Assembly: GCA_020849625.1 (NCBI GenBank)
Contig: JADLFV010000123.1
Location: 10,605 to 74,604, forward strand
Source: Phycisphaeraceae bacterium
Lineage (GTDB): Bacteria; Planctomycetota; Phycisphaerae; Phycisphaerales; Phycisphaeraceae
Reading direction: 5' to 3'
DNA length: 64,000 nt
Shown here: positions 1-52,110 of the stretch, piece by piece
Position numbering within the stretch: position 1 is the stretch's first letter
Layout of the letters: every line of letters starts with the position of its first letter
Notes under the pieces: model-generated
Seen by the model: the letters and a program-made list of their open reading frames with translations, nothing else
What the model was told of the DNA's origin: nothing
Databases searched by the model: none
Made by a program: the position numbers and the translations under genes

Positions 1-639
1 GAGTGGTGGGGCAACAATTCCTACGCCAGGAGCCGCGCCCGCCAGCTCGCCGAGATGGGTTATGCCGCGTTCGCTGCCGACATGTACGGCATGGACAAGA
101 CCACCGAAGACCCCGAGCAGGCCAAAGCCTGGGCATCGGCTTTTTACCAGGACCAACGCCTGTTGCGCGACCGTGCGGAAGCGGGCCTCGACATCCTGCG
201 CAAACTTCCGCTGTGCAAAGACCAACCCCTGGCTGCCATCGGCTTCTGCTTCGGCGGCAGCACCGTGCTGCAACTGGCCTGCGACAACCCCGATCGCCTC
301 GCGGCCGTGGTCAGCTTCCACGGCAATCCCGCGCCCCCGGAAGAAAAAGATCCCGAGCACATCCAACCCGCCATCCTCATCTGTCACGGCGCGGACGATC
401 CGTTCGTCTCCCCCGAGTCCTTGCAGGCCGCCATCGACGGCTTCAGGCAGCACAACGCCGACCTGACGTTGATCGAATACGAAGGCGCCAAGCACAGCTT
501 CACCAACCCCGAAGCCGACGGCAGCTTCAACGAAGGCGCGATCTATCACGAGGAAGCCGCCAAGAAGGCCTGGGCGGACATGCAGGAGATGTTCGAGCGG
601 GTGCTGAAGCCGCAGGCTGAGACCAGCCATGAGCCATGA
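1..639 (+). CDS. Dienelactone hydrolase family protein (5' end cut by window edge)
   Basis: Frame 1 is open from nt 1 (EWWGNNSYARSRARQLAEMGYAAF...), stop TGA 637-639. DLH-type alpha/beta-hydrolase hallmarks: GFCFGG, ICHGADDPFV, EYEGAKHSF. Confidence 0.75.
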   Translation, partial: EWWGNNSYARSRARQLAEMGYAAFAADMYGMDKTTEDPEQAKAWASAFYQDQRLLRDRAEAGLDILRKLPLCKDQPLAAIGFCFGGSTVLQLACDNPDRLAAVVSFHGNPAPPEEKDPEHIQPAILICHGADDPFVSPESLQAAIDGFRQHNADLTLIEYEGAKHSFTNPEADGSFNEGAIYHEEAAKKAWADMQEMFERVLKPQAETSHEP

Positions 640-650
640 GCCACCGAGGG
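626..650. repeat. Solo tandem-unit arm (GCCATGA GCCATGA GCCACCGA GGG), no inverted partner nearby
   Basis: Same GCCACCGA/GCCACCAA unit family as the hairpin at 10307-10398. Overlaps the stop codon (637-639) of the hydrolase gene. Confidence 0.5.
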
Positions 651-688
651 TTCGATCCAAGGACCAAAAACCAACAATCCAACACAAA

Positions 689-720
689 CATCAGCGATCC
701 GCAATCAGACATCAGAGATT
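689..720. repeat. Solo copy of the CATCAGCAATCCGCAATCAGACATCAGAGATT arm
   Basis: 31 of 32 nt identical to 43068-43099 (right arm of hairpin 43006-43099); related to 54414-54444. Confidence 0.8.
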
Positions 721-3993: not shown

Positions 3994-5226
3994 GTGTCGA
4001 TACCCCCGTGGTTGAGAGGTCAGGCGTTGAGCGTGGCAAGTCGATGCAGGGATTGGGCGGGGCGCTGTTATGCCCGTGTGCCGGATCGGGTGGATGAGGC
4101 GTTGCTGCGCCTGTGGCATGGCTGGCGCGAGGCGGCGGGGCGGCAGGTCGGCATCGAGATGATGAGCAACGGTTCCTGTCGCGTGCTGGCGGCCGGGCGT
4201 GCCACGTCGATGGACTATTTCCTGGATCGCCTGCCGGGTGGCATGCCGCGAGTCGAATCGAGCCGCACGGTGAGTCGTGGCGCATTGGCGGCGGCGTTGC
4301 ACGATCAGATCAACGATGCGGACCTGTTGCTGGCGCGATTGCCGCGGCGCTGGTTGCAGCGGCATCCCGGTGCGTTCGACGGCCGCTGGTGGCGAGTGCC
4401 GGAGGTGGTGGGCGAGAAGATCGTGTTGCCGGAGTCGGATACCGCGAATCTGATCCCCTGGAAGAACGCCAGCAATCAGAACAATCTGGCTCGCATTCGC
4501 AAACACAATCTGAGCTGGTCGATTTCTCACGATGAGCGTGACTTCGACTATTTTTATCATCGGATGTATCTGCCGTTTCTTGCGCAGCGCTATGGCGAAC
4601 AGAGCCAGCCTCGCTCCGAGCACCGCATACGGCGGCGCTTTCGTCAGGGCGGCATCCTCTGGGTGACACAAGGCGAACGGAAGCTGGCAGCCGAGGTGTT
4701 CAGCATCCGCGGGCGGCAGTTGTCGAGCCTGTTGATGGCGCCCGAGCCGCGCTATCCGGACGCGGTGAAAATGGGCAGCCTCAGCGCCACGTATCTGTTC
4801 ATGCTCCAGTGGGCTTGGCAACAGGGTTGCCGCGAGGTGCTCGAAGGTGTCAGCCGGCCCTCGCTCAGTGACGGCGTGGTGATCCACAAAAAGCATTGGG
4901 GGGCGCAACTGGTCGATTCGCCCGATGCCCGCCACGATCTGCTGTTCGCCTGGCCTCGCTTCACGCCGCCGATCGCGCGCTTCCTGCACGAATCACCGCT
5001 GGTGGTGCGCGACGGCGATCAACTAAGCGGCCTGACCACCATGCCGTTGGATGCGTCGCCCGATCCCGGCTTGACGGAGCAGCATCTCAAGAGCATCGCT
5101 TCCGCCGGGCTGAGCCGGCTGCACGTGATCGCCGATCCGCCCTGGCGCTGCGATTCGCCGCGAGCCAAAGAGCTGCCGATCTGCTGGATATCCAGTCAGG
5201 CTGCCGTGTTGCCGATATCAGGGTAA
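3994..5226 (+). CDS. Possible FemAB/GNAT-like (BioF2-like acetyltransferase fold) protein; start uncertain
   Basis: 410-aa ORF (GTG start without a well-spaced SD; internal ATGs possible). The region DFDYFYHRMYLPFLAQRYGEQS...GSLSATYLFMLQWAWQQGC resembles FemAB-related/Acetyltransf_6 proteins found in exosortase-associated EPS loci. Assignment by eye only. Confidence 0.45.
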   Translation: MSIPPWLRGQALSVASRCRDWAGRCYARVPDRVDEALLRLWHGWREAAGRQVGIEMMSNGSCRVLAAGRATSMDYFLDRLPGGMPRVESSRTVSRGALAAALHDQINDADLLLARLPRRWLQRHPGAFDGRWWRVPEVVGEKIVLPESDTANLIPWKNASNQNNLARIRKHNLSWSISHDERDFDYFYHRMYLPFLAQRYGEQSQPRSEHRIRRRFRQGGILWVTQGERKLAAEVFSIRGRQLSSLLMAPEPRYPDAVKMGSLSATYLFMLQWAWQQGCREVLEGVSRPSLSDGVVIHKKHWGAQLVDSPDARHDLLFAWPRFTPPIARFLHESPLVVRDGDQLSGLTTMPLDASPDPGLTEQHLKSIASAGLSRLHVIADPPWRCDSPRAKELPICWISSQAAVLPISG

Positions 5227-9077: not shown

Positions 9078-10306
9078 TGCTCAGCGTGGCGCATCAGCTT
9101 CGGCGAATGCGGCAGGCCACGAGGGCGAATCCCGGCGTCATCGCCACCATGCAGGCGCATCGACTGCAAAATCTGGTGCGCTGCGCCTATGACCATGTGC
9201 GCTACTACCGGCAATTGTTCGATGAGGCGGGGATCGATCCTTCCACGATCAGAAAGGTTTCGGACCTGTCCCGCATCCCGATCAGCCGCAAGAGCGATCT
9301 GCAGGCGGCTGGTGCTGAAGTGATCAGCAGTCAGGCTTTTTCACCGCAGCATTGCGTGATTGAAAAGACCAGCGGTTCGAGCGGCGCGCCCTTCGAGATT
9401 CGATTCGATCGACATTTCGTGGCGGTGCGCAACGCCATGTTCCTGCGGGCAATGGGCGCGGCGGGTTACCGGCTGGGACAGCGGATGATGCTGATCAGCG
9501 GCACGCAACCGCGCCAGCGGCGCTGGCCGACGCCGTGGCTCTACGTGCCGTTCGACGATTCCCCGGCCGCCATGCTGGAGAAGTTGAATCGCTTTCGACC
9601 GCAGGTGCTCTACGGCTGGGTGACGCCGCTGCGGCAGTTGGCTGAGCACGTGCGAGAACACAACCTTCCGGGGGCCCATCAACCGCGGGCCGTGGTGACC
9701 ACCGCTGAGCCGCTCGATGGTCCGACCCATGCGCTGCTGGGTGAAGCGCTGGGGGCGGAGGTGTTTGAGATTTTCGGCCTTACGGAAATGGGCGCGATGG
9801 CTTGGGAATGTTCCCGGCACGACGGCCTGCACCTGGCGCAGGACGTGGTGATCGCTGAGCGCGTCGAAGGCCGGCTGGTGCTGACCAATCTGTTGTTACG
9901 GGCCATGCCGCTGCTGCGCTACGACTGCGGCGACCTGGTGGAGCAGTTTCCGCCGATGGAGATGTGCGCTTGTGGTTGCACCTTCGCCAAGCTGCCGCGG
10001 GTGGAGGGTCGGCAGGTTGATTGCGTGCGTCTGGCGGATGGGCGCGTGTTGTCCCCTTATAGTCTGACACTGGCCATGGAGAAGGTTACGGCATTGCAGC
10101 GATATCAGGTGATCCAGTCGGCGCTGGGGCGTTTGGAGGTCCATTACGTGCCGCAACCGGGCAGCAGCGACGCCGAGCCGGAGATTCGGGCTGCGCTGGC
10201 CGCGTTGCTGGGTGAACAGGCGTCCATTGAGGTTATCAAGCGGTCCACGCTGGATCCCCCGCCCGGCCGCAAGTTCCGCGTGGTGGAATGCCGATGCAGG
10301 AGCTAG
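9077..10306 (+). CDS. Phenylacetate-CoA ligase / coenzyme F390 synthetase-like adenylate-forming enzyme (CapK-like)
   Basis: ATG 9077 overlaps the upstream TGA (TGATG). AMP-binding motif KTSGSSGAPF; PaaK-family-like length and layout. Confidence 0.7.
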   Translation: MLSVAHQLRRMRQATRANPGVIATMQAHRLQNLVRCAYDHVRYYRQLFDEAGIDPSTIRKVSDLSRIPISRKSDLQAAGAEVISSQAFSPQHCVIEKTSGSSGAPFEIRFDRHFVAVRNAMFLRAMGAAGYRLGQRMMLISGTQPRQRRWPTPWLYVPFDDSPAAMLEKLNRFRPQVLYGWVTPLRQLAEHVREHNLPGAHQPRAVVTTAEPLDGPTHALLGEALGAEVFEIFGLTEMGAMAWECSRHDGLHLAQDVVIAERVEGRLVLTNLLLRAMPLLRYDCGDLVEQFPPMEMCACGCTFAKLPRVEGRQVDCVRLADGRVLSPYSLTLAMEKVTALQRYQVIQSALGRLEVHYVPQPGSSDAEPEIRAALAALLGEQASIEVIKRSTLDPPPGRKFRVVECRCRS

Positions 10307-10398
10307 GAAGCCACCGAGCCACCAAGCCACCAAGGGATGGGTAAGCGGTCCCATAACGAATCCCTTGGTGGCTCGGTGGCTCGGTCACTTGGTGGCTT
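10307..10398. repeat. Long hairpin, GCCACC(G/A)A-unit family
   Basis: Left arm 10307-10337 (GAAGCCACCGAGCCACCAAGCCACCAAGGGA) is the imperfect reverse complement of the right arm 10361-10398 (TCCCTTGGTGGCTCGGTGGCTCGGTCACTTGGTGGCTT). It starts right after the stop at 10304-10306. Confidence 0.85.
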
Positions 10399-13101: not shown

Positions 13102-14403
13102 ATGGTCACCCAGGCGCCCGCAAGCAAACCTTCCGCCACGACTTCGACACGCAGTCAACTGCTGGACAACGCGCTGCTGCTGCTGGATCGAGCTGTGCAG
13201 CATAAGCTGGCGTCCGTGCCCGACGATCTGATGGAGAAGCTGCGCAAGCCCAAAGAGCGGATCGAGGTGACCATGTCGCCTCAGCTCAGCGACGGCCGGG
13301 TGCACACCATTCCCGCTTACATCGTGCGCCACAACACCGCGCTGGGACCGGCCAAGGGCGGCATCCGCATGACCAGCCAGGTCACGCTCGATGACGTCAA
13401 CGGCCTGTCCATGGACATGACCTGGAAGTGCGCCCTGATCGGCGTGCCCTTCGGCGGCGGTAAGAGCGGCATCGTGGCCGACCCCCGGAAGTTAAGCGTG
13501 GGCGATCGTGAAGTGCTGATCCGTGCGTTCGCCCGCTCCGCCGTGCGCCACATCGGCCCACAGGTCTATGTCCCGGCCCCCGACATGGGCACCACCGAGC
13601 GCGAGATGGGATACATCAAGGACACGCTCAGCAACGACGACGGGCAGGCCACCACCAGCGGCTGCTACGTCACCGGCAAGCCCGTCATCCTCGGTGGCGT
13701 CCCCGGCCGACGCGAAGCCACCGGGCGCGGCGTGGCCATCTGCGTGCGCGAAGCTCTGGCCCAGATGAATCAGCCCATTGAGCAGGCCACCATGGTTCTG
13801 CAGGGCTTCGGCAACGTGGGCGGCGCGGCCGCGATGATCCTGCACCAGATGGGCGCCCGCATCATCGCCGTGGCCGACATCGACGGCGCAGTGGTCAATC
13901 ACGACGGCCTGGATGTCCCAGCCCTGAACGACTATGCCAGGTGCACCGGCACAGTGCATGGTTTTACCGGCGGCAAGGAAATCGATTCCGCAGCCGTGCT
14001 GGAGCTGCCTTGCGACGTGCTGATCCCCGCCGCCGCCGCCGGCCAGATCACCGCGGACAACGCCCCGCGCATCGCCGCCCGGCTTATCGCGGAGGGAGCC
14101 AACGGCCCCACGCTGCACGAAGCGGACGAAATCCTGCGCGAACGCGGCATCACGGTGTTGCCCGACATCCTCTGCAATGCCGGCGGCGTCTATGTCTCCT
14201 ATATCGAATACACGCAGGAAACACAGCAGGAACAGTTCACCGAATCGCTGGTCAACAAGCGCCTGGAGAAGCGCATGGTGGCTCGCTACCAGCACGTGAG
14301 CCAGTATGCGGCGGAAAAGAAACTGACCCTGCGTGAAGCAGCCATGGCCATCGCCATTGAGCGCGTGGTGGAAGCGACGGTCGCCAAGGGCATGTTGCCG
14401 TAA
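13102..14403 (+). CDS. gdhA: Glutamate dehydrogenase (Glu/Leu/Phe/Val dehydrogenase family)
   Basis: GPAKGGIRM, GVPFGGGKSGI, Rossmann GFGNVGG. Confidence 0.9.
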   Translation: MVTQAPASKPSATTSTRSQLLDNALLLLDRAVQHKLASVPDDLMEKLRKPKERIEVTMSPQLSDGRVHTIPAYIVRHNTALGPAKGGIRMTSQVTLDDVNGLSMDMTWKCALIGVPFGGGKSGIVADPRKLSVGDREVLIRAFARSAVRHIGPQVYVPAPDMGTTEREMGYIKDTLSNDDGQATTSGCYVTGKPVILGGVPGRREATGRGVAICVREALAQMNQPIEQATMVLQGFGNVGGAAAMILHQMGARIIAVADIDGAVVNHDGLDVPALNDYARCTGTVHGFTGGKEIDSAAVLELPCDVLIPAAAAGQITADNAPRIAARLIAEGANGPTLHEADEILRERGITVLPDILCNAGGVYVSYIEYTQETQQEQFTESLVNKRLEKRMVARYQHVSQYAAEKKLTLREAAMAIAIERVVEATVAKGMLP

Positions 14404-25923: not shown

Positions 25924-27072
25924 TCAGACGCCCGGCCAGCCGGGGAAAACGAATTTGCCGTCGCGCTGGATGACTTGGCCATCGACGGTGATCGTGCCGC
26001 CGCCCCCGGAAGTTGATCTCATATCGCAGACCATGTCCCAGTGCAGGCCGGAGCTGTTGCTGTTGCCGGTTTCGGGATAGCCGGCCCCGACGGCGGCGTG
26101 GAAGGTGCCGCCGATCTTCTCGTCGAACAGCGTGTTTTTGCTGTAGTTGGTGATCTGGTAGTTGGTGCCGATGGCGATCTCGCCCATGAAGCGGGCCCCG
26201 GCATCCTGATCCAGCATGTTCAACAGGAACTCGAGGTTCTTGGAGGCCTTGGCGTCAACCACTTTGCCCTTTTCAAAGGTGAACACGATGTCGTGCACCT
26301 CGCGGCCGTGATGGACGGCCGGGAACGAGTAATGCACGATGCCGTTGACCCCGCCATCTTTTGCTTTGAGATTGGGCCCGGTGAAGACTTCGCCGTCGGG
26401 GAAGTTTTCGTGCCCGCAGCAGTTGATCCAGGTCATGCCCTCGACATTGACGTGCAGATCGGTGCCCCCGGAAGTCTGAAAGTGCACGTGCTTTTTGCCG
26501 TTCAGATAGTCCACAACTTTCTGCTGTGATGCTTCGATCTTGCGCCACTCGGCGATGGGATCATCTTTGTTGAGGTGGCCGGCGTTGAAGACAAAGTCCT
26601 CGTATTCGGCCAGGCTCATCTCCGCGTCCTGGGCCGAGGCATAAGTGGGATAGAGCGTGCCGGTCCAGCGTAGCGATTTGCTGGCGGCGCGATTCATGAA
26701 GATCTCCATGATCGGCTTGCGGGCGGCGGAGGCCAGCTTCTGCTTGCGGGGATCGACCTGGCTGAGGCTCTTGGTGTTGGTGTCCGCCCACAGGCCGATG
26801 GAGGCGTCGATCTTTTCGATCTCGAACTTGGCCAGGGGACTGACATACTGCAACTGCTCATCGTTGGCCGCGGCGAAGAAGATGTCCTGGGCGTTGTCCG
26901 GGGTGCATTTGATAAAGGGGTGTCCCCCCGCCCGCAGCACCGCCTCGTACAGGGCCTCCAGTAGTGGGGTGCCCACCACCGGGCCGGCCAGCCGCACCAA
27001 CTGTCCCGGCTTGATGCCCACCGAATATTCCACCAGCACCCGGGCCAACTTATCCAGTCTCTGATCGCGCAA
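25924..27072 (-). CDS. Aminopeptidase, peptidase family M29 (AmpS-like)
   Basis: Probable TTG start at 27072, preceded by AAGGAG (27080-27085 on the plus strand) with 7-nt spacing. This gives (M)RDQRLDKLARVLVEYSV, typical of M29 N-termini. The maximal ORF extends to 27123. Confidence 0.8.
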   Translation of the reverse strand: MRDQRLDKLARVLVEYSVGIKPGQLVRLAGPVVGTPLLEALYEAVLRAGGHPFIKCTPDNAQDIFFAAANDEQLQYVSPLAKFEIEKIDASIGLWADTNTKSLSQVDPRKQKLASAARKPIMEIFMNRAASKSLRWTGTLYPTYASAQDAEMSLAEYEDFVFNAGHLNKDDPIAEWRKIEASQQKVVDYLNGKKHVHFQTSGGTDLHVNVEGMTWINCCGHENFPDGEVFTGPNLKAKDGGVNGIVHYSFPAVHHGREVHDIVFTFEKGKVVDAKASKNLEFLLNMLDQDAGARFMGEIAIGTNYQITNYSKNTLFDEKIGGTFHAAVGAGYPETGNSNSSGLHWDMVCDMRSTSGGGGTITVDGQVIQRDGKFVFPGWPGV

Positions 27073-27179: not shown

Positions 27180-28292
27180 ATGCCGGCTGGACCAGGATCG
27201 GACGACCCGCCCACGCACCGCCAACTCGGTTCGGGGGCGCTGATTCCGGGGGCGGGCGACATGCTCGCCCCAGGAACTGGCGCCTCTGAGCCGGAGGTTT
27301 GCGTGCAGGCTCCCGCCCTGCCCGACGATGACGAGCAGGCCCAGGCGATCAGCGATCTTCCCGACGGCGCTGACCGTTTTACTTTTGGCCGCAGCCTTGA
27401 ACCCGCTTTACGCCGCGTTTGTGAAGGACGACTGTCGCAGGTCAGTTGGTTCCGATCCGACTGGCAACGCGGCGGGGCCCTGACCGGCTTCGCCCAGTGG
27501 ACCGTTGACGATGGCCGGGTGCTGCCCGCGTTCGTCAAGATGCCCGTGCCCCCCTGCGAGCGACACTGGCTGGCAGCTCTGCAATCCCATCCCGATGTGG
27601 TGCCGCGCCTGTTCGGCCACGGCGAGCAGGTCGAAGGTTACGACCTGGCCTGGGTCGTGATGGAAAAAATCGAGCACGGCCCGCTCGGTTCCGCCTGGCT
27701 GGGCAAGGAGTTCGATCTGCTGGCGGAAGCAGCGGGGCGGTTCTATGCCGCGGCCGCGCAACATCCGCTGGTGGGCCAGCCGTTGCAGAAAGACTGGCAG
27801 GCCATCTACGAATTGAGTCGCAAGCACGCCCACAACGGCTCGCTGGCCGAGTCGCAACGTTGGAATGCCGTGCTCAAGAAAGCGCATCGCAAGCTCAAGG
27901 ACTGGATCGCCCAGTGGCAGCAGCGCCCGTGCGAAGACTGGTGCCACGGCGACCTGCACCTGGCCAACGCCCTGACCCGCAGCGAACCGCCGCAAGGCCC
28001 CGCATTGCTGGTGGATTTCGCCCGCACCCGCGTGGGACACTGGGTGGAAGACGCCATCTACTTCGAGCACCTGTTCTGGGCCCGCCGCCAGCGCCTCGGC
28101 GACCGCCGCCTGGCCAGCATGATCGCCCATCAGCGCAAACATCACGGCCTGAAAGTCAGCGAGGACTGGCCGCGCTATGCCGACCTCAAGCGCGCCCTGC
28201 TGGCCATGAGCACCCCCGCCATGTTGCCGCACGACGGCGAGCCGCATCACGTTCACGCCGCCCTGGAAGTGCTCGAGCGCGCGGTGGGGTGA
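27180..28292 (+). CDS. Phosphotransferase (APH/choline-kinase-like) family protein
   Basis: AAGGAG 5-6 nt upstream of the ATG. Brenner-type motif CHGDLHLANAL and LVDFARTRVGH. Confidence 0.6.
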   Translation: MPAGPGSDDPPTHRQLGSGALIPGAGDMLAPGTGASEPEVCVQAPALPDDDEQAQAISDLPDGADRFTFGRSLEPALRRVCEGRLSQVSWFRSDWQRGGALTGFAQWTVDDGRVLPAFVKMPVPPCERHWLAALQSHPDVVPRLFGHGEQVEGYDLAWVVMEKIEHGPLGSAWLGKEFDLLAEAAGRFYAAAAQHPLVGQPLQKDWQAIYELSRKHAHNGSLAESQRWNAVLKKAHRKLKDWIAQWQQRPCEDWCHGDLHLANALTRSEPPQGPALLVDFARTRVGHWVEDAIYFEHLFWARRQRLGDRRLASMIAHQRKHHGLKVSEDWPRYADLKRALLAMSTPAMLPHDGEPHHVHAALEVLERAVG

Positions 28293-31375: not shown

Positions 31376-32560
31376 TCACCGCCGGTGCACGAACAGCAGC
31401 AGGGCGATGGTCGCTCCCTGCACGATCAGCCCGCTGAGCATCCAGCGCATGAACAGGTCGTAATCCCCTGCCCCCATCCACAGTCCGCCCAGCAGACACA
31501 CGCCCGCCACCAGTTGCAGCACGATGGCGGTGATCGACAGGTAATTGAACTCGCCATCCGACGAGCCGCGCTGAGCCCGCAGTTCTTGCAGGATCAGGCG
31601 CAGCAGGCGGGCATCAGATGGCGGATGGCGGGTAGCGGATGGCGGATGGCTGATTCGCGATGTGTCAGGCTCTTGCAACCGCGGCGATTTGTCCAGTTCC
31701 TTCTTCTGTTTGTCCTGCTTTGGCTCCTCCGCCTTCTGCCCTCCGCTGTCCGCCCTCTGTCCCCCGCCATCGGCCTTCGCTCTCTCCAGCGGCGGCGTGT
31801 CCCAGGGCTGGAACGGCTTGGTGGCGCGTGGTGGGATGGCAGGATTTTGCGGCGCTGGGCGCGGCGGGGCAGGCTTCTGCAACTGAGCCACTGCCGCGGC
31901 GTCCCACTTGCGTTCACCAGCCATGGCCCGCGTGATCGTCTGTTCGCTTTCCGGATTGCGCTGCTGGGCGATGATGCGCACCGCTTCGATCAGCGTGCGC
32001 GCGTAGTAGTTGGGCCAGCGCGGACTGTCAGCCGGGGCCTCGTTGTGAGCACGCTCCAGCTTGGCCAGGTCCAGCGGCGCCAGCAGGTCGGCATCCTCGC
32101 GCAGCAGAATCGTGCGCGTGCCCGCCGCGGCGCCCGCCTGCACGTCGCGCGGCTGATCGCCGATGGTCCACGAACGCGACAAATCCAGGTCGTGCTGCTC
32201 GGCCGCCTCCAGCCACATGCCCGGCTGCGGCTTGCGATTGGGATGCTCGCGCTTGTATTTGGCGACCTTGCCATCGGGGTGATAGGGACAGTAGTAGTAG
32301 GCGTCGATGCGGGCCCCGTTGGCAGCCTGCTGCAGTAACTGGCTGAGGCGCTGGTTGACCGCCCGCACGTCGTCCTCGCCGAAGTTGCCGCGAGCGACGC
32401 CGCCCTGATTGCTGACCACGATGACCTTGTAGCCCAGTCCGCACAGCGACGCCACCGCCGCCGCCGCGCCTTGCATGAGAATGACCTTCCGGGGGTCGCC
32501 CATGTCGCCGTCGTTGTGGATCAGCGTGTTATCACGATCAAGAAACACCGCCGGGTGCAT
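31376..32560 (-). CDS. D,D-heptose 1,7-bisphosphate phosphatase (GmhB-like HAD) fused to a low-complexity linker and C-terminal 2-TM segment
   Basis: HAD motifs FLDRDNTL, VVSNQ, YYYCPYHP, GDQPRDV in the first ~180 aa. Then a Pro/Lys-rich linker, then FNYLSITAIVLQLVAGVCLLGGLW...LIVQGATIALLLFVH. Confidence 0.7.
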   Translation of the reverse strand: MHPAVFLDRDNTLIHNDGDMGDPRKVILMQGAAAAVASLCGLGYKVIVVSNQGGVARGNFGEDDVRAVNQRLSQLLQQAANGARIDAYYYCPYHPDGKVAKYKREHPNRKPQPGMWLEAAEQHDLDLSRSWTIGDQPRDVQAGAAAGTRTILLREDADLLAPLDLAKLERAHNEAPADSPRWPNYYARTLIEAVRIIAQQRNPESEQTITRAMAGERKWDAAAVAQLQKPAPPRPAPQNPAIPPRATKPFQPWDTPPLERAKADGGGQRADSGGQKAEEPKQDKQKKELDKSPRLQEPDTSRISHPPSATRHPPSDARLLRLILQELRAQRGSSDGEFNYLSITAIVLQLVAGVCLLGGLWMGAGDYDLFMRWMLSGLIVQGATIALLLFVHRR

Positions 32561-43673: not shown

Positions 43674-43702
43674 GCCCCCCGGAAGTGCCCGCCCCCGGAA
43701 GT
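43674..43702 (+). promoter_or_regulatory. Two direct copies of GCCCCCGGAAGT in a divergent intergenic region upstream of rpsF
   Basis: GCCCCCCGGAAGT (43674-43686) and GCCCCCGGAAGT (43691-43702). The same 10-mer core recurs 12 more times in the window. Confidence 0.3.
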
Positions 43703-44287: not shown

Positions 44288-44289
44288 TC

Positions 44290-44784
44290 ATGCCGAACCT
44301 GAACAAGGTCATGCTGATGGGCAATCTGACGCGCGACCCCGAGTTGCGCTACACGCCGAACAATCTGGCGGTGGCGAACCTCGGCCTGGCGGTCAATCGC
44401 GTCTGGTACAACAAGCAGACCAATGAGAAGCAGGAGGAAACCACCTTCGTCGATTGCGAAGCCTGGGGCCGCACCGCCGAGGTGCTCTGCCAGTACCTGC
44501 AGAAAGGCCGACCTGTTTATCTCGAAGGCCGCCTCAAGCTCGATCAGTGGGAAGACAAGGACGGCCAGAAGCGATCCAAGCTCAAGGTCGTCGTTGACCA
44601 GTTTCAGTTCATCGACTCCAAACAAGGCCAGGGCGGTCCCCCCGGAAGCAGCGGCGGCCCCGATGGCGGCTCGGCCGGCTACAACAACAATCGCGGCAAC
44701 GCCCCGCGCCGGTCTGCGCCTGCTGCCGGGGGCGGCGGCGAGCCGATCCACGAGCCGATCGAAGAAGGAGACATTCCGTTCTGA
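44290..44784 (+). CDS. ssb: Single-stranded DNA-binding protein
   Basis: MPNLNKVMLMGNLTRDPELRYTP OB-fold N-terminus, Gly-rich linker, C-terminal DIPF. Confidence 0.9.
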   Translation: MPNLNKVMLMGNLTRDPELRYTPNNLAVANLGLAVNRVWYNKQTNEKQEETTFVDCEAWGRTAEVLCQYLQKGRPVYLEGRLKLDQWEDKDGQKRSKLKVVVDQFQFIDSKQGQGGPPGSSGGPDGGSAGYNNNRGNAPRRSAPAAGGGGEPIHEPIEEGDIPF

Positions 44785-44792
44785 TTTTTTAC

Positions 44793-44896
44793 AATTTTAA
44801 GTTTTAGAATTTAGATTTTAGATTGCCTGCGATCATGTTCCCCAGACGTTCGAGTATCCGAAGCAATTTAAAATCTAAAATCAAAAATCTAAAATT
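44793..44896. repeat. Long AT-rich hairpin, TTTTAGA 7-nt-unit family
   Basis: Left arm 44793-44825 (AATTTTAAGTTTTAGAATTTAGATTTTAGATTG) is the imperfect reverse complement of the right arm 44864-44896 (CAATTTAAAATCTAAAATCAAAAATCTAAAATT). Confidence 0.85.
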
Positions 44897-44975
44897 AATA
44901 ATTCACGTTCCCTCCATGCTGATGTCCGAGCCGTTTGCCTCGGGCGTCTAACTTTCAACCCAAGGACACCATGAC

Positions 44976-45521
44976 ATGAAGATGATTGAACTGCTGCTGT
45001 TGGAGACCGTCGAGACCCTGGGCATCGTGGGTGACGTGGTCAAGGTCCGTCCCGGCTACGCCCGCAATTTCCTGCTGCCGCGCGGCCTGGCCACCAAGCC
45101 GACCCCCAAGGCCATCGAGAATCTCGCCGCCCGCCGCGCCGAAGTCGAGGCCGAACTGACCCGCCTCAAGGCCGAGCGCGAAGCGCTGATCGAGAAGCTC
45201 AGCGAATTCGAGCTGACCCTGCCCCGCACCGCCAACGACCAGGGCCACCTCTACGGAGGTGTCTCTCAGCACGACATCGCCCAGGCCCTCAGCGAGGCTG
45301 GCTTCGCCATCGAAGACCGCCACGTGCGCATCGGCGAGCAGATCAAGCGCCTCGACAGCTACGAGATTCCCATCGTGCTGGACAAGGACCTGCGGACCCA
45401 GATCAAGCTCTGGGTGGTGCGCGACCAGCCGACCACGGCTGATCTGGACGCAGCCGCCGAAAGCGCCGAGGTCGAAGAGCCTGCCGTCGAAGCCGAACTG
45501 GAGCAGGACCAGAACGCGTAA
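44976..45521 (+). CDS. rplI: 50S ribosomal protein L9
   Basis: MKMIELLLLETVETLGIVGDVVKVRPGYARNFLLPRGLA. Confidence 0.9.
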   Translation: MKMIELLLLETVETLGIVGDVVKVRPGYARNFLLPRGLATKPTPKAIENLAARRAEVEAELTRLKAEREALIEKLSEFELTLPRTANDQGHLYGGVSQHDIAQALSEAGFAIEDRHVRIGEQIKRLDSYEIPIVLDKDLRTQIKLWVVRDQPTTADLDAAAESAEVEEPAVEAELEQDQNA

Positions 45522-46143: not shown

Positions 46144-46704
46144 GTGCATCCCATGCGGCAGATCGCTGACAGCAAGCACGTCGAGGTGCTGATCCACGGC
46201 CTGGCCGATGCCGTGGCCGCGGTCCGTCTGGAGGCGCCCGCCGACCAGACCTGGGCCCTGGTGGGCATCCGCAACCGTGGCGACGAAATCGCCCGTCGCA
46301 TCGCCCGCCGCCTCGATGCCCACGGCGACAAGCCGCCCGTGCCCGTCGGCAGTCTCGACATCACCCTCTATCGCGACGACCTGTCCGAGATCGGCTCGCA
46401 GGCGGTGGTCGGCACCACGGACATTCCCTTCGAGCTCGATGCCGTGCACGTGGTGCTGGTCGATGACGTGCTGATGACCGGGCGCTCGATTCGCGCCGCC
46501 ATGGCCTCGCTGATCGACCTGGGCCGGCCGCGCCGCATCTGGCTGGCGGTGCTGACCGATCGCGGCGGGCGCGAGCTGCCGATCTGCCCCGACTTCGTGG
46601 GGCTTGACCTGACCAGCGAGCCTATCGAAGCGGGCGAACACGTGTACGTGCATCTGAAACCTGCGGACGACAAGGACCAGATCGCGGTGGGGCCGATCGG
46701 ATGA
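46144..46704 (+). CDS. pyrR: Bifunctional pyrimidine regulatory protein / uracil phosphoribosyltransferase
   Basis: PRPP-binding VVLVDDVLMTGRSIRAA; PyrR-like length. Confidence 0.85.
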   Translation: MHPMRQIADSKHVEVLIHGLADAVAAVRLEAPADQTWALVGIRNRGDEIARRIARRLDAHGDKPPVPVGSLDITLYRDDLSEIGSQAVVGTTDIPFELDAVHVVLVDDVLMTGRSIRAAMASLIDLGRPRRIWLAVLTDRGGRELPICPDFVGLDLTSEPIEAGEHVYVHLKPADDKDQIAVGPIG

Positions 46705-47669
46705 GCAAACAATTGGGCAATCAAGCTGACGACTATCGCTGGCCGCACCGCCACCTTTTGTCGTTGGAGGAATTGTCCAGCCAGGACATTCGCTTCCTGC
46801 TCACCACCGCCCTGGGCTTCGAAAGCGTATCAACCCGCAGCGTCAAAAAAGTCCCCGCCCTGCGCGGCCGCGTGGTGGTCAACCTCTTCTTCGAGGACTC
46901 AACCCGCACCCGGGCCAGTTTCCATCTTGCCGCCAGCCGCCTGTCAGCCGACGTTTTGGAGTTCAGCGCCAAAGGCTCCAGCGTGGCCAAAGGTGAAACG
47001 CTGATCGACACCGCCCGCAACATCGAAGCCATGGGCGTCGATGCCATCGTGGTCCGCCATCAACAGAGCGGCGCCGCCCGCATGGTCTCGCAGGCTGTTG
47101 GTTGCAGCGTGCTGAACGCCGGCGACGGCCAGCATGAGCATCCCACCCAGGGCCTGCTCGACGTGTTCACCATCGCCAAGCGCCTCAACCGCACCGACAC
47201 CTTCGACTTCACTGGCTTGAAGGTCGCCATCGTCGGCGACATTGCTCACAGCCGCGTCGCTCGCTCCAACGTCCACGCCCTGCAGAAACTTGGCGCCAGG
47301 GTCGTGCTGGTCGGCCCGCCCACGCTCCTGCCCGGCGGATTCCGCGATATGGGCTGCGAGCTTTCACATGATCTGGATGCCGTCCTTCCGGGGGTCGATG
47401 CTGTCAACATGCTGCGCGTGCAGTTCGAGCGCCTCACCAGCCAGGCTTTCCCCTCCGTGCGCGAGTATTCCTCGCTCTTCGGCCTGACCGCCGCGAGAAT
47501 GCAGCGGGCCCGCAAAGATATCCTCGTCATGCACCCCGGCCCCATGAACCGCGGCCTGGAAATCGAATCCGCCGTCGCCGACAGCCCCAACTCCACCATC
47601 CTCGAACAGGTCACCAACGGCCTTGCCATCCGCATGGCCGGCCTGTTCCTGACCGTCGGCGCTAGCTGA
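46701..47669 (+). CDS. pyrB: Aspartate carbamoyltransferase catalytic subunit
   Basis: FFEDSTRTRASF, HPTQGLLD, HPGPMNRG; ATGA overlap with pyrR. Confidence 0.9.
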   Translation: MSKQLGNQADDYRWPHRHLLSLEELSSQDIRFLLTTALGFESVSTRSVKKVPALRGRVVVNLFFEDSTRTRASFHLAASRLSADVLEFSAKGSSVAKGETLIDTARNIEAMGVDAIVVRHQQSGAARMVSQAVGCSVLNAGDGQHEHPTQGLLDVFTIAKRLNRTDTFDFTGLKVAIVGDIAHSRVARSNVHALQKLGARVVLVGPPTLLPGGFRDMGCELSHDLDAVLPGVDAVNMLRVQFERLTSQAFPSVREYSSLFGLTAARMQRARKDILVMHPGPMNRGLEIESAVADSPNSTILEQVTNGLAIRMAGLFLTVGAS

Positions 47670-47674
47670 GCATT

Positions 47675-47849
47675 GAACCGCAGAGACGCAGAGGACGCGG
47701 AGGAAGGCAGGAACAATTGAGTAAAGAAATGGGAGAAAAAACCAACCGCAGATTTCACAGATTACACAGATTCAAACATTCAGAATCTGTGTAATCTGCG
47801 CAATCTGTGGTTTCTGTCTTCCTCTGTGTCCTCTGCGTCTCTGCGGTTC
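47675..47849. repeat. Nested composite hairpin (outer CGCAGAGA-unit arms, inner CACAGATT-unit arms)
   Basis: Outer arms 47675-47706 and 47818-47849 (GAACCGCAGAGACGCAGAGGACGCGGAGGAAG / CTTCCTCTGTGTCCTCTGCGTCTCTGCGGTTC). Inner arms 47746-47773 and 47783-47810 (CCGCAGATTTCACAGATTACACAGATTC / GAATCTGTGTAATCTGCGCAATCTGTGG). Confidence 0.9.
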
Positions 47850-47884
47850 AACCTTCTTTCCGGTTTTACGCTATAACAACACCC

Positions 47885-48466
47885 ATGCCTCAGGGAATGC
47901 TACTCGTCATCTCCGGCCCCTCCGGCGTCGGCAAGACCACCATCACCCATCACGTGGAGCGCGACCTCAACGGCGTCTTCAGCGTGTCGGTCACCACCCG
48001 CAGCAAGACGCCGGCGGACACCGAAGGCCGCGATTACTTCTTCGTCAGCCCCCGGAAGTTTGAACAGATGCGCGATGGTGGTGAGCTTCTGGAGTGGGCG
48101 GAAGTGTACGAGGGCCTCTGCTACGGCACACCCCTGGCGCCCGTGCAGCAGGCGATCGAGGCCGGGCGGCTGATGATCCTGGAGATCGACGTCGAAGGGG
48201 CGGTGCAGATCAAAAAGAAAATGCCCGAAGCCTTCAGCCTGTTCGTGCTGCCGCCCAACGAGAAGGTGCTGCTGGAGCGCCTGCGCAAGCGGGCCCGTGA
48301 GGATGAGGCCCTCATCCAGCGCCGTTTCGCCAAGGCCAAGGCCGAGATCATCCGCGCCTGGGAGTGCGGCATCTACGACGAGTTTGTCGTCAATCGCGAC
48401 CTGGATCACGCGGTGAAGGAAGCCGTGGCACTGGTCCGCAGCGAAATGTTCCTGCGCGGGGGGTAG
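47885..48466 (+). CDS. gmk: Guanylate kinase
   Basis: Start MPQGMLLVISGPSGVGKTT (P-loop); SVTTR, EWAEVYEGLCYGT. Confidence 0.9.
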   Translation: MPQGMLLVISGPSGVGKTTITHHVERDLNGVFSVSVTTRSKTPADTEGRDYFFVSPRKFEQMRDGGELLEWAEVYEGLCYGTPLAPVQQAIEAGRLMILEIDVEGAVQIKKKMPEAFSLFVLPPNEKVLLERLRKRAREDEALIQRRFAKAKAEIIRAWECGIYDEFVVNRDLDHAVKEAVALVRSEMFLRGG

Positions 48467-48585
48467 GAGCAGGGGTAGGCAGTAGTGAGTAGGGGTTGAG
48501 TTACGAAGTCCAAAGTGTTACCGACATCGGCTTTGGCCGTTGGCCTAAGCCCTACTCCCTACTGCCTACTCCCTACTGCCTGCTC
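48461..48585. repeat. Long hairpin, (G/C)AGTAGG 7-nt-unit family, between convergent genes
   Basis: Left arm 48461-48495 (GGGTAGGAGCAGGGGTAGGCAGTAGTGAGTAGGGG; contains the gmk stop). Right arm 48550-48585 (CCCTACTCCCTACTGCCTACTCCCTACTGCCTGCTC; encodes the last residues and stop of the minus-strand gene). Confidence 0.85.
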
Positions 48586-50799
48586 AATGTACGCCACCAG
48601 ACGCTGGCGCTGCTCGTCATTCAACTGCACGGCCGGATCCAGGTAGCGCTGGGCGCTCAGCGCCAGCACATCCCGATACGCCTCGACCGCTTCCGCCCGA
48701 CGGCCGACTTCTGCCAGCAGGTCGGCATAACGCATGTAATCGGGCAGACTGTAGGGCAGTCGCTCGATCACCCGTTTCTGATCGGCGATGGCTGCGTCCA
48801 GGTCGCCCAGCGCTTCATGCACGTTGCTGCGCCAGCGATCGAGGCGGAAGCTGTCCACGCCGCCGAACGCGGCCGGCTCACACAGGGCCAGCGTCTCTCG
48901 CCGCACCCGCTCAGCACCGCGAGCGTCGCCGAATTTGGCCAGTGCCTGCGCCTTTTCCAGCCGCAGCAGAATGCGCCAGCGCAGCGTCGTGTCATCGCCC
49001 GCCACTGAGAGCGCGGATGCATCCAGCTCCGCCAACGCCGCCTGTCCCCGCCCGCTCTGGATCGCCCGCAGCGCCGCGGCCAGGTGCTCCTGCTGCCTCG
49101 TCACCGGACCGGCCACGCATACCACCAGCATCACCGCCGCGATCAGCAACAATGGCACGATCACCCAGTCGAATCGCTTCGCCTTGGCTGCGCTCGGCGC
49201 ACCCGCGGCCGCCAGCGCCAGCAGCATCCATGCGGGCACCACCGAAGGCATGTGATGGAACGTCATCTCGATCTGGTTATGCCCGATCAGTCCCACCGCC
49301 GCGGCCAGCATCCCCGCCTGCATCCAGCGCCTGTTGATCCGGCCTGCCACCAGCAGTCCCATCAGCAGCAGAAATCCCAGCGCCTCAGCTAACCACAGCA
49401 GGGCGGTCCCCCACCACAGCGAATCGAGCTTGATCACGTACTGGATACCAAACAGCACCGCCGCCACCGCCGCGCACGGCAGCCATCGCTCGTAGCCGAC
49501 CGGCGGCGGATGGTCGTCCTCCGTTGCCGGCATTTTCGTCGCGCGCAGCAGCCATGTGACGATCAATGCTGTCCACGCCCAGCCGCCGAGGCCGAGCATG
49601 CTGATCCAGTCCACGAACAGGTTATGGGCGCTGCGCACATCCTCGGGCGACAGCGGATTCTTGGCTGACAGATACTGTTCGCGGAAACCCGCCTGGCCGA
49701 CGCCGATCAGCGGATGATCCGCCGCGATGCGCGATGCGCCCTGCCAGTAGTGGTAGCGAAACAGCAGCGTCAGTTTGGCCGAACTGATGGGGGCACCTTC
49801 CGGGGACGGGCCCATGGCGCCGACAGCCAGCACCACCGCCACGGCCGCGACCGGCACGCCCATGCTCATCGCCATCAGCAGCCATCGCCTCACACGGATT
49901 GACATTGTTGGGTGCCACGGCCGCGTGCGGCCGTGCGCAGCATCGGACACACCCGCACGCGGGTGTGGCACCCCAGTAAGCCAGCAGGCCGCCAACAGCA
50001 CAATCAAACCCGCAAACATCGCCGCCTGCGCACCGCGCGAGTGGGTCAGATACAACGTCACCGCGCCCCCGACGCTGACCAGCAGCGCCGCCGGCCTGCC
50101 CCAGCGCCAGGGCGATGCCAGCAGCAATCCCGTGCCCAGCAGCACCGAGGCCATGGTCAGTGAACCGAGCACGTTGGACAGAGAAAAGTTGCCGATGAAA
50201 TCCGGTGCATGGAGTCGGCGTTCGTAAAGTTGCTGCGAGTTGGTGACGGTTTCGCCGCCGCGGGCGTCGATCCACTGCTGCTGCTGGCGCTGATAGCTTT
50301 CGATGGTCTCCGCGTGCTCGACGGTGACGAACCAGACCGCATCAATGGTCAGCGGCAGCAGCACGGCCACGAAGCCCGCGATGATCCAGCGTCTTGCCCC
50401 CGCCCCCGCCCCCGGAAGTTGGCACAGGTGGTAAGCCGCCAGGGCCAGGCAGGCCCCCGCGATCCAGGCCGATCCGTACCACAGATCATCCGGCCCCCGG
50501 AAGTGAACCATCTGCGCCACAATGCCAACACTCACCAGCGCCACCGCCCACCACGCCACCGCCCGCCGCAGCAGCACGCACCATCCCATGATCAGGCATG
50601 CCAGCAGCACTGCGATCACGCAGTACCAGCCCGCGAACGCCGGCCCGAACGCGATCGCCGACTGGGCGGCCGCCTCGGAGTTGGGATCAACATCGAAATA
50701 GATGCGCGGCAGAAAGGCGACCACGTAAGGCAGCAGAGCCACGATCAACAGTGCCGCCGCCGCCGCAATGGCGCCTCGCCGTTGGAGCGTGTCGTTCAC
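48559..50799 (-). CDS. O-antigen ligase (Wzy_C)-domain membrane protein with C-terminal TPR domain
   Basis: Many TM helices. LTHSRGA, RYHYWQGASRIAADHPLIGVGQAGF, AHNLFVDWISMLGLGG (O-antigen ligase signature region). C-terminal TPR-like helical repeats. Confidence 0.75.
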   Translation of the reverse strand: MNDTLQRRGAIAAAAALLIVALLPYVVAFLPRIYFDVDPNSEAAAQSAIAFGPAFAGWYCVIAVLLACLIMGWCVLLRRAVAWWAVALVSVGIVAQMVHFRGPDDLWYGSAWIAGACLALAAYHLCQLPGAGAGARRWIIAGFVAVLLPLTIDAVWFVTVEHAETIESYQRQQQQWIDARGGETVTNSQQLYERRLHAPDFIGNFSLSNVLGSLTMASVLLGTGLLLASPWRWGRPAALLVSVGGAVTLYLTHSRGAQAAMFAGLIVLLAACWLTGVPHPRAGVSDAAHGRTRPWHPTMSIRVRRWLLMAMSMGVPVAAVAVVLAVGAMGPSPEGAPISSAKLTLLFRYHYWQGASRIAADHPLIGVGQAGFREQYLSAKNPLSPEDVRSAHNLFVDWISMLGLGGWAWTALIVTWLLRATKMPATEDDHPPPVGYERWLPCAAVAAVLFGIQYVIKLDSLWWGTALLWLAEALGFLLLMGLLVAGRINRRWMQAGMLAAAVGLIGHNQIEMTFHHMPSVVPAWMLLALAAAGAPSAAKAKRFDWVIVPLLLIAAVMLVVCVAGPVTRQQEHLAAALRAIQSGRGQAALAELDASALSVAGDDTTLRWRILLRLEKAQALAKFGDARGAERVRRETLALCEPAAFGGVDSFRLDRWRSNVHEALGDLDAAIADQKRVIERLPYSLPDYMRYADLLAEVGRRAEAVEAYRDVLALSAQRYLDPAVQLNDEQRQRLVAYIEQAVGSRQ
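49920..49984. repeat. 65-nt double-hairpin palindromic element, copy A (inside the O-antigen ligase ORF)
   Basis: GGGTGC-CACGGCCG(CGTG)CGGCCGTG-linker-CACACCCG(CACG)CGGGTGTG-GCACCC. Stems identical to copy B at 56909-56973. Confidence 0.85.
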
Positions 50800-50815
50800 G
50801 CCGATAGTGTAGCTG

Positions 50816-50922
50816 GGCAGTAGGGAGTAGGGAGTAGGCAGTAGGGAGTAGGGGCAGTAGTCACAGGCGGGTGTCGAATGCGAAAGCCTACTGCCTACTG
50901 CCTATCTCACTACTGCCTACTC
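50816..50922. repeat. Long hairpin, (G/C)AGTAGG 7-nt-unit family
   Basis: Left arm 50816-50860 (GGCAGTAGGGAGTAGGGAGTAGGCAGTAGGGAGTAGGGGCAGTAG). Right arm 50887-50922 (CCTACTGCCTACTGCCTATCTCACTACTGCCTACTC; overlaps the stop at 50917-50919). Confidence 0.85.
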
Positions 50923-52110
50923 TTTCCTCGTCAGCACGCGGGTCAACTGCTTGAGCGCCTGTCGCATGCGGTGCTCGTTTTCGACCAGGGCCAGGCGGAC
51001 GTAGCCTTCGCCCAAGTCGCCGAAGGCGGCCCCGGGGGTCATGGCCACCTCGGCCTGATCGACCATGGCCAGGCAGAAGTCATTGGTCGAGCCGTTGTAT
51101 GGCAGCAGGTGCTCGGGTTTGACCCTGGCCCAGACGAACATGGTGGCCCGGGGCGAATCGACTTGCCAGCCCAGTCGCTGCAGGCCGCGCACCAGCACGT
51201 CACGCCGCGACTGGTACTTGGCGGCCTGCTGCTCGACGTGCTTGTCGCCTTCGCGCATGGCGATGATGGCGGCGATCTGCACCGCCTGGAAGATGCCGTA
51301 GTCGTAGTAGCCCTTGATGGTGGACAGGGCCTTGATCATCTGTGCGTTGCCGCAGCAGAACCCGATACGCCAGCCGGCCATGTTGTAGGGCTTACTGAGC
51401 GTGGTGAACTCGACGCCGAAATCTTTACTTCCGGGGGCCTGGAGGAAGCTGGGGGCATGATAGTCGTCGAAGCAGGTTTCGCCGTAGGCGAAGTCGTGCA
51501 GGATGGCGACCTGGTATTTGTCAGCCATGGCCACGACCTTTTCGAAGAAGCCGGGATCGACGGTCATGGCCGTGGGATTGTGTGGATAGTTGAGGATGAC
51601 CACCTTGGGCCGTGGCGTCAGGTGTTCGAGCACGCCGGCAATGCGGCCGAGGAACGCATCATCGTTGCCCAGCGGCACGCTCACCGTCGATGCGCCCGCG
51701 AGAATCACCGCATAGGTATGAATCTGGAAGGCCGGGTCCGCCACCACCGCGATGTCGCCGGGCCCCAGCATGGCCAGGCACATGTGACTGAAGCCTTCCT
51801 TGGAGCCGATGGTGGCGATCACTTCTCGATCGGGGTCCAGCTCGACGCCCCAGCGCCGCTGATACTTGCGGGCCATGTCGCGGCGAAGGTTGTACACGCC
51901 GGCACTCACGGAATAACGACTATTCCGGGGGTCGGTGACCGCTTCACGGATCTTCTCGACCACCGCATCGGGCGGGGCGTCGGTGGGATTGCCCATGTTC
52001 AGGTCGATCACGTCGGCGCCGGCCTTGCGGCGTTCGTAGATCATCTGCTTGAGCCGACCCAGCACGTAGGGCGGCAGACGTTCGATGCGTGATGCGGGTT
52101 TGATTTCCAT
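50917..52110 (-). CDS. Pyridoxal-phosphate-dependent aminotransferase, class I/II
   Basis: Start MEIKPASRIERLPPY at 52110; NMGNP, NYPHNPT, PLP-Lys region LSKPYNMAGWRIG. Confidence 0.85.
   Translation of the reverse strand: MEIKPASRIERLPPYVLGRLKQMIYERRKAGADVIDLNMGNPTDAPPDAVVEKIREAVTDPRNSRYSVSAGVYNLRRDMARKYQRRWGVELDPDREVIATIGSKEGFSHMCLAMLGPGDIAVVADPAFQIHTYAVILAGASTVSVPLGNDDAFLGRIAGVLEHLTPRPKVVILNYPHNPTAMTVDPGFFEKVVAMADKYQVAILHDFAYGETCFDDYHAPSFLQAPGSKDFGVEFTTLSKPYNMAGWRIGFCCGNAQMIKALSTIKGYYDYGIFQAVQIAAIIAMREGDKHVEQQAAKYQSRRDVLVRGLQRLGWQVDSPRATMFVWARVKPEHLLPYNGSTNDFCLAMVDQAEVAMTPGAAFGDLGEGYVRLALVENEHRMRQALKQLTRVLTRKE

Follow-up and report, generated by a model that had tools for sequence, protein, structure and literature searches.

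A sharply defined, highly enriched DNA word in a Phycisphaeraceae bacterium, patchily distributed within Phycisphaerales and shared with phages

Genes and copies of the word in the window

The stretch of DNA analyzed here (64,000 nt, referred to throughout as the window) belongs to an uncultured Phycisphaeraceae bacterium (Planctomycetota) and covers positions 10,605-74,604 of the forward strand of contig JADLFV010000123.1 in assembly GCA_020849625.1. Its G+C content is 63%, and 53 genes were called in it; outside the loci annotated by tools, gene calls were made with a heuristic of our own based on the G+C content of third codon positions. The subject of this report is a 10-mer, CCCCCGGAAG, which is non-palindromic and contains CCGG. 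With the consensus R-CCCCCGGAAG-Y and the core CCCCGGAA, it is a word specific to a Phycisphaerales/Phycisphaeraceae clade which is enriched about 80-200-fold and is shared with phages of similar sample origin.

The window contains 14 exact copies of CCCCCGGAAG (10 on the plus and 4 on the minus strand), a density of 1 per 4.6 kb. Twelve of the 14 copies are genic, six being sense and six antisense, with all three frame offsets represented. A preliminary description of the window had reported the same number of copies at the same positions, except that the last minus-strand copy, given there as starting at 51429, was placed by our recount at 51428-51437. The exact copies and near-copies are as follows.

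334..343, + strand: exact CCCCCGGAAG, sense in a YghX-like hydrolase gene (1-639 +), reading PPE
9665..9674, - strand: exact copy, antisense in a PaaK/F390-synthetase-like ligase gene (9053-10306 +); the gene reads LPG
13482..13491, + strand: exact copy, sense in the glutamate dehydrogenase gene (13102-14403 +), reading PRK
26003..26012, + strand: exact copy, antisense in the M29 aminopeptidase gene (25924-27123 -), read in the gene's frame as SGG
26465..26474, + strand: exact copy, antisense in the same aminopeptidase gene, read in the gene's frame as SGG
32486..32495, - strand: exact copy, sense in a GmhB-like phosphatase gene (31376-32560 -), reading PRK, against PAL or PKR in orthologues
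43676..43685, + strand: exact copy, unit 1 of the sole intergenic direct pair, which has a period of 16; rpsF (43820 +) follows about 135 nt downstream
43692..43701, + strand: exact copy, unit 2 of the intergenic direct pair
44639..44648, + strand: exact copy, sense in the C-terminal tail of ssb (44290-44784 +), GPPGSS against AASGDS in the orthologue of locus L002
47385..47394, - strand: exact copy, antisense in pyrB (46701-47669 +), LPG against LPR in the two closest orthologues
48049..48058, + strand: exact copy, sense in gmk (47807-48466 +), reading SPRK; most orthologues have acidic residues here
50409..50418, + strand: exact copy, antisense in a Wzy_C-type gene (48559-50799 -), preceded by two extra CCCCCG units
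50494..50503, + strand: exact copy, antisense in the same Wzy_C-type gene, read in the gene's frame as FRG
51428..51437, - strand: exact copy, sense in the aminotransferase gene (50917-52191 -), QAPGSK; orthologues have the near-motifs GCCGCCGGAAGC or ACGCCCGGAAGC, or none
27243..27252, - strand: copy of the 9-mer core, CCCCCGGAAT (position 10 G>T)
51922..51931, - strand: copy of the 9-mer core, CCCCCGGAAT
53939..53948, - strand: copy of the 9-mer core, CCCCCGGAAT
49797..49806, - strand: variant TCCCCGGAAG (position 1 C>T), with the 8-mer core CCCCGGAA intact

The four near-copies lie where they had been placed before. The assignment of the word to conserved host genes was likewise borne out (glutamate dehydrogenase, SSB, PyrB, Gmk, a GmhB-like protein, M29 aminopeptidase, class I/II aminotransferase and a Wzy_C O-antigen-ligase-like protein), and recomputation reproduced the use of all three frames, both orientations relative to the gene and the encoded peptides. 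The approximately 20 window genes annotated include none for a type IV pilus, ComEA, ComEC or DprA.

Abundance and sequence of the word

Dinucleotide shuffles of the window yielded an expectation of 0.17 copies of CCCCCGGAAG and never more than 2, in agreement with the earlier rough estimate of well under one. For a codon-aware null, synonymous codons were shuffled within each of the 53 called genes while the two intergenic copies were left unshuffled. The shuffles averaged 2.5 copies and never exceeded 6; since this average includes the two unshuffled copies, about 0.5 genic copies are expected where 12 were observed. A maximal-order Markov expectation was uninformative, because the motif also dominates the counts of the sub-words of CCCCCGGAAG. 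As sources of the abundance, the shuffles ruled out chance, dinucleotide composition and codon bias. The enrichment is also not a matter of chance clustering within the window, as two loci of relatives, fetched by protein homology with the motif ignored, held 16 copies where 0.07 were expected (L256) and 6 where 0.03 were expected (L081).

The word is sharply bounded. The 14 exact copies in the window outnumber the copies of all thirty possible one-mismatch variants together (10). Its core CCCCGGAA (positions 2-9) is sharp: in 507 kb of motif-rich loci there were 374 exact copies of the word, against 0-13 copies for each variant with one mismatch in the core, which is about the chance level. 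In motif-positive loci chosen without regard to the motif (214 kb), the full 10-mer was counted 87 times and the 9-mer core CCCCCGGAA, which adds the first C to CCCCGGAA, 136 times. Position 1 is softer than the core, and position 10 is G in about 64% of copies, a preference and not a requirement. The word is preceded at position -1 by a purine and followed at position +11 by a pyrimidine, mostly T. The flank bias reported earlier for the window was found again, with G in 9 and A in 3 of the 14 copies before the word, and T in 9 and G in 3 of the 14 after it. Beyond -1 and +11/+12 the flanks are unconserved, except for a local richness in C within about 30 nt. A hidden palindrome was considered and rejected, as CTTCCGGAAG had no copy in the 214 kb of motif-positive loci.

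Distribution with respect to genes, strands and reading frames

Single copies were classified in 125 high-GC loci (873 kb). Loci L086-L255 had been chosen for their array content, and only their single copies and flanks entered the statistics. Fifty-six single copies were sense, 68 antisense and 45 intergenic; the intergenic share was 27%, compared with about 20% of non-coding DNA. All six frames were used, and the copies were spread evenly along genes. This use of six frames and both senses excludes a protein or RNA motif, and the proposal that the word acts at the DNA level and is not a protein motif stands, the word being independent of strand and frame and changing amino acids. A dispersed repeat or mobile element of the repetitive extragenic palindromic (REP) or miniature inverted-repeat transposable element (MITE) type was rejected for single copies on the basis of unconserved flanks and ungapped alignments with orthologues.

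The orientation of neighbouring sites was random (concordance 0.47; 63 loci, 219 sites). Simulated strand skews of 0.65 or more were rejected at P<=0.006, and a Chi-like skew of 0.75 and a KOPS-like skew (FtsK-orienting polar sequences) of 0.9 were each rejected at P<0.0005. Site orientation was unrelated to GC skew beyond +-100 nt. In dense loci chosen without regard to the motif, the copies were split 7:9, 7:6, 6:6 and 3:5 between the strands. These results remove polar signals from consideration. The distribution fits recognition of duplex DNA, independent of strand, frame, direction of transcription and direction of replication.

Turnover of sites and changes in encoded proteins

The closest PyrB matches to the window were from Phycisphaeraceae metagenome-assembled genomes (MAGs), with 73% and 71% identity, while the aminotransferase relatives with 80-96% identity were Phycisphaeraceae or Phycisphaera. 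Near-identical DNA is present in wastewater and activated-sludge metagenomes. It offered no usable polymorphism at 43-52 kb of the window: the fragments from the same organism, at about 3x, were identical to the window, and the other wastewater contigs were conserved genes of other organisms.

None of the five testable window sites was kept in orthologues (44-89% protein identity), and the residues encoded there differ. The gmk site, SPRK in the window, is DRGE in the closest orthologue and mostly acidic in the rest (SDEE/DDEE type). The pyrB site reads LPG in the window and LPR in the two closest relatives; the gmhB site, PRK, corresponds to PAL or PKR; the ssb site, PPGS, to ASGD; and the aminotransferase site, APGS, to AAGS, TPGS or ANGA. 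The aminotransferase relatives carry near-motifs which are one or two changes away from the word. Because the alignments with orthologues are ungapped, single copies arose by substitution and not by insertion.

A comparison of QueA, a conserved enzyme of tRNA modification, between two dense genomes (L164 and L256; the two proteins are 87% identical) showed one of five sites to be shared. Two sites differ by substitution, and two lie within lineage-specific in-frame inserts that consist of copies of the word, one of which is a PEAT x5 array of CCCCGGAAGCyA units while the other consists of CTTCCGGGGG, the complement of the word, followed by CGGGGG repeats. The QueA gene of L164 (1272-2567 -) has the insert PPEATPEATPEATPEATPEAT and that of L256 (10001-11125 +) the insert LSLPGAGAGAGLG, each being absent from the other genome. 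The word explains odd in-frame peptide inserts in conserved enzymes, and the force of its accumulation prevails over the amino-acid preferences of housekeeping genes.

Arrays, inverted pairs and short-unit repeats

Direct tandem arrays of the word are common, with periods of 12, 15 and 18 nt making up 48 of 66 spacings. The spacer is usually constant within an array, which indicates that arrays grow by local duplication. They occur between genes and in frame within genes, some of which are conserved. Intergenic arrays often start 0-3 nt past a stop codon, and they are co-oriented with the flanking genes (21 vs 6). A partial-unit expansion like that in QueA was seen at 50397-50418 of the window, where (CCCCCG)x2 is followed by CCCCCGGAAG. 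Copies of the word have been gained both by substitution and by local duplication, at a cost in amino acids. Inverted pairs at distances of up to 80 nt were all of the type word...reverse-complement (11 vs 0, two-sided binomial P ~0.001), an arrangement which is shared by inverted pairs of DNA uptake sequences (DUS).

Paired tandem arrays of other sequences are present in intergenic DNA of the window at 10308-10397, 44794-44895, 48550-48585 with 50819-50921, 52126-52215 and 60905-61009. They are built of unrelated 7-9-nt units which are mutual reverse complements, for example AAGCCACC x3.4 facing GGTGGCTC x3.9, and form hairpins with short-tandem-repeat arms. The tendency to duplicate short units which lies behind these arms probably also underlies the CCCCCGGAAG arrays. 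Two close relatives carry arrays of other 10-mers (GAATGCTGAA x6 in L001, CAZYPK010000235.1, and GAATGACGAA x7 in L081), so short-unit arrays are a general habit of the family.

Distribution among relatives

The copies of CCCCCGGAAG found in loci of relatives, all of them fetched by protein homology with the motif ignored, are listed below; identities without a named protein are those of the aminotransferase.

L256, Phycisphaerales MAG GCA_054605035.1: 16 copies in 19.8 kb
L081, 89% aminotransferase identity: 6 copies in 14.3 kb
L083, GCA_016125215.1, 85% identity: 3 copies in 21 kb
L002, SJ709 MAG, 71% PyrB identity: 5 copies in 21 kb, all in arrays
L085, 83% identity: 1 copy in 21 kb
L261, complete genome CP114179.1, 80% identity: 1 copy in 21 kb
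L258 and L259, 84% identity: 0 copies

Relatives at 80-89% aminotransferase identity thus range over 0, 1, 1, 3 and 6 copies per 14-21 kb, and densities lie between about 1 per 7 kb and 1 per 1.2 kb. Nine loci of other Planctomycetota (165 kb) had no copy, and 57 unrelated high-GC loci (1.07 Mb) had four, which is the chance rate. The trait is patchy within one order, Phycisphaerales. Inspection of 14-21 kb of each motif-negative relative revealed no alternative hyper-abundant word.

A scan of metagenomes for paired copies returned at least 120 loci. Several of these are chromosomal (encoding MurJ, ParA, QueA or NuoH) with about 1 copy per kb, and the closest named relative of one of them belongs to Phycisphaerales. 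Among paired-copy loci of low G+C (39-46%; L104, L106, L123 and others in L136-L255), some are coding repeats of the (M)PPEE type; they lack extra single copies and are unrelated to the phenomenon in Phycisphaerales.

With regard to the neighbourhood of the intergenic pair, the gene order at 43820-45521 of the window is rpsF, ssb, rplI, with ssb in the place where many bacteria have priB. The heuristic gene calls contained no open reading frame of the size of rpsR between ssb and rplI; the S18 gene of relatives is located elsewhere (L258 14246-14485, L261 17867-18109).

Occurrence in phages

The paired-copy scan of IMG/VR identified 50 loci, many with further single copies, which lie on both strands. 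These loci are real phages, with genes for tape-measure, head-protease and large-terminase proteins, for primases and for ParB-methyltransferase fusions. The word is dense in a subset of tailed phages and in one jumbo phage. The contig of the latter, IMGVR_UViG_3300005512_000002 (193 kb), encodes a DNA polymerase and exonucleases and has a stretch of 9.3 kb with 23 tRNA genes. The 23 tRNA genes are all on one strand of L117 1-9335 (contig 81267-90601), and three-unit arrays of the word start 3 nt downstream of tRNA-Glu (2850-2925) and tRNA-Ser (4423-4512).

Related HK97-type phage loci were collected by an alignment search with the head protease, in which the motif was ignored; a search based on the large terminase (TerL) gave 4 loci. 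Out of 82 related HK97-type loci, 67 had no copy, nine had 1-2, three had 3-4 and three had 8-13 per 14.5-22 kb. In the dense loci the copies were randomly oriented. Presence or absence of the word in a phage presumably tracks the lineage of its host. The motif-positive HK97-type phages share a gene for a fusion of a ParB-like domain with a DNA methyltransferase (phrog_498), located beside the large terminase gene (L276 3-1262, L299 2869-4248, L311 1796-3271 and L110 10240-11661).

Possible function of the word

It is very probable that CCCCCGGAAG is a real recognition word of this clade, read at the level of DNA. The reading ranked first, to which we give a probability of roughly 0.4, is that of an uptake or exchange tag of the class of DUS and uptake signal sequences (USS), spread by molecular drive linked to transfer. 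It is placed first because preferential transfer of tagged DNA is the sole established mechanism that gives such a pattern. To our knowledge, DUS and USS have not been established outside Neisseriaceae and Pasteurellaceae, nor the highly iterated palindrome HIP1 outside cyanobacteria. The hyper-abundant words with a known or argued function have all been tied to DNA uptake (PMC3630211; bioRxiv 10.1101/2025.10.24.684340; PMC13756078). HIP1, whose enrichment is 15-300-fold (PMC5861425), is now argued to be an uptake tag and has been linked to both DNA uptake and methylation (PMC13756078). Of the likenesses suggested in the preliminary description, that to DUS and USS gained from the extreme enrichment, sharpness and lineage specificity of the word, while that to Chi and KOPS was not supported, given the neighbour-site concordance of 0.47 and the absence of a link to GC skew beyond +-100 nt.

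Under such a mechanism, the machinery of DNA exchange would include a protein that binds DNA sequence-specifically and favours fragments bearing the word. Transfer and recombination would then be more frequent for alleles which gain a perfect copy, by point mutation or by local tandem duplication, and molecular drive would spread the copies. Local duplication into arrays would give a fragment more tags, and phages which recombine with or reside in the hosts may acquire the same tag.

Several observations weigh against an uptake or exchange tag. One-mismatch intermediates are not enriched, and perfect sites dominate more fully than they do in USS. Direct tandem arrays are foreign to DUS and USS. 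The inverted pairs have loops of 13-57 nt with no T-run after them, and because the loops are long and the T-run is absent they are unlike intrinsic terminators. About 73% of single copies are genic and the association with terminators typical of DUS and USS is missing, whereas about half of DUS and USS lie in terminators (bioRxiv 10.1101/2025.10.24.684340). Phages carry the word at the density of the hosts or above it; in 48.6 kb of the jumbo-phage contig there are 19 single copies and 22 in arrays (at least 10 arrays). An uptake drive does not readily explain the word in virulent phages. The literature search found nothing on natural transformation in Phycisphaerae. Phage abundance, direct arrays and the missing terminator link fit uptake poorly, and for this reason the two readings that follow were kept alive.

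The first of these, tentative and on balance rather unlikely, is that the word is a selected binding or modification site, or a self tag: an abundant host protein would read it on all DNA within the cell, a high density would be of direct benefit, and phages would mimic it under selection. The protein could be nucleoid-associated, a methyltransferase acting together with a protein that reads its mark, or a nuclease or defence sensor which the word switches off in either orientation. The word would then be HIP1-like in the older sense of chromosome maintenance, or an unpolarised analogue of protection by Chi. The phages argue for this, since they include a probable virulent jumbo phage, carry the word in random orientation at a density like that of the hosts or higher, and among related phages are either rich in the word or essentially free of it, as if each were adapted to its host. 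The arrays with periods of 12, 15 and 18 nt resemble cooperative protein-binding arrays, those between genes follow the orientation of the flanking genes, and the CCGG within the word is a common target of methylation. However, selection would have to keep a 10-mer enriched approximately 100-fold in every frame at the price of radical amino-acid changes, and we know of no system that does so. The benefit per site would be tiny, and in the orthologues compared the sites turn over and are not conserved. A narrower version, in which an orientation-independent self tag is read by a host surveillance or exchange protein and is mimicked by phages including the jumbo phage, which would even have stacked it in arrays behind stop codons and tRNA genes, is considered unlikely; if true, it would be a self/non-self system based on presence of a word, distinct from restriction-modification and from polar Chi.

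The second, which we regard as improbable, is a functionless ratchet, in which sequence-specific repair or methylation lowers the loss of the word, or biases conversion toward it, on any resident DNA. This would account for sharing between host and phage without uptake, and the partial-unit expansions (CCCCCG x3 at 50397-50418 and CGGGGG repeats in QueA of L256) hint at local oddities of replication or repair. There is a precedent in that a methylation/mismatch-repair ratchet has been proposed for HIP1, as related in PMC13756078, which cites Elhai 2015. Yet biases of the very-short-patch type affect one position of a 4-5-mer and give modest enrichment, while here eight core positions are sharp. 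In addition, no particular one-mismatch neighbour is depleted, the radical replacements in gmk and gmhB need a strong force, and in the orthologues compared the sites are not unusually conserved.

A polar signal of chromosome maintenance, that is, a Chi site of RecBCD/AddAB or a translocase-orienting sequence of the KOPS type or of the architecture-imparting (AIMS) type, is very improbable. The density in the window resembles that of Chi in E. coli, the complement of the word is G-rich, the window copies are split 10 to 4 in favour of the plus strand, and coliphages gain Chi sites. Random orientation of neighbours over the 63 loci largely refutes it, as do the near-even strand splits of dense loci and the lack of association with GC skew; Chi and KOPS words are moreover 5-8 nt long and enriched few-fold, so that a 10-mer enriched about 100-fold is far outside their range.

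That the word is a by-product of a protein or RNA motif, of codon bias or of mobile-element remnants (REP or MITE ends) is scarcely credible, for although in-gene arrays encode simple peptides such as PEAT x5, some low-GC array matches are plainly coding PPEE-type repeats unrelated to the clade, and inverted pairs could resemble terminal inverted repeats, this is refuted for single copies by the use of six frames in both senses, the loss of the word in synonymous shuffles, the unconserved flanks and the ungapped alignments.

Significance

No report of such a word in Planctomycetota was found in the literature; neither an uptake sequence in Planctomycetes nor a mention of CCCCCGGAAG was retrieved, and the word itself matched only unrelated primers. 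It belongs with the hyper-abundant genomic words, among which its sharing with phages and its in-frame arrays are unusual features. Such words are rare, and each is a handle on how bacteria distinguish self from foreign DNA. Almost no DNA-exchange or phage biology is known for Planctomycetota. If the word is of the DUS, USS or HIP1 kind, it would point to sequence-specific DNA exchange or surveillance in a group without apparent reports of natural transformation. Some phages, a discrete subset to which a jumbo phage belongs, carry the word, an unusual trait in an uptake sequence that lets a transfer tag be tested against a self tag. Possible uses are as a marker that links phages to hosts in wastewater and sediment metagenomes and in better genetic tools for Phycisphaerae.

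Comparison with known systems

Chi (for example GCTGGTGG of E. coli) is similar in density (about 1 per 4.6 kb in the window) and in the G-rich complement of the planctomycete word, and no other host word is known to be gained by phages under selection. Chi words differ in being 5-8 nt long, few-fold enriched and polar with respect to replication, a polarity which was looked for and not found in the planctomycete word.

HIP1 of cyanobacteria (GCGATCGC) is likewise a short hyper-abundant word found in and between genes, without a role in RNA or peptide and with a possible methylation core; its function was long a puzzle. However, HIP1 is a palindromic octamer which is distributed phylum-wide and whose sites are conserved between genomes, whereas the planctomycete word is no palindrome, has a patchy distribution within a single order, and appears to turn over its sites, judging by orthologues of 44-89% protein identity.

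In comparison with DUS (Neisseriaceae, GCCGTCTGAA and its dialects) and USS (Pasteurellaceae), whose preferential uptake by competent cells involves a dedicated receptor (ComP; ComN predicted), the planctomycete word has another sequence and is found in another phylum. It also lacks an association with terminators, forms direct arrays, is abundant in phages and has unenriched one-mismatch variants. What the three have in common is a non-palindromic word of 9-12 nt, enriched about 100-fold or more, which is lineage-specific, occurs on both strands, in all frames and in housekeeping genes, imposes amino-acid changes and forms word...reverse-complement pairs; the planctomycete word reaches a density of about 1 per 1.2 kb in L256.

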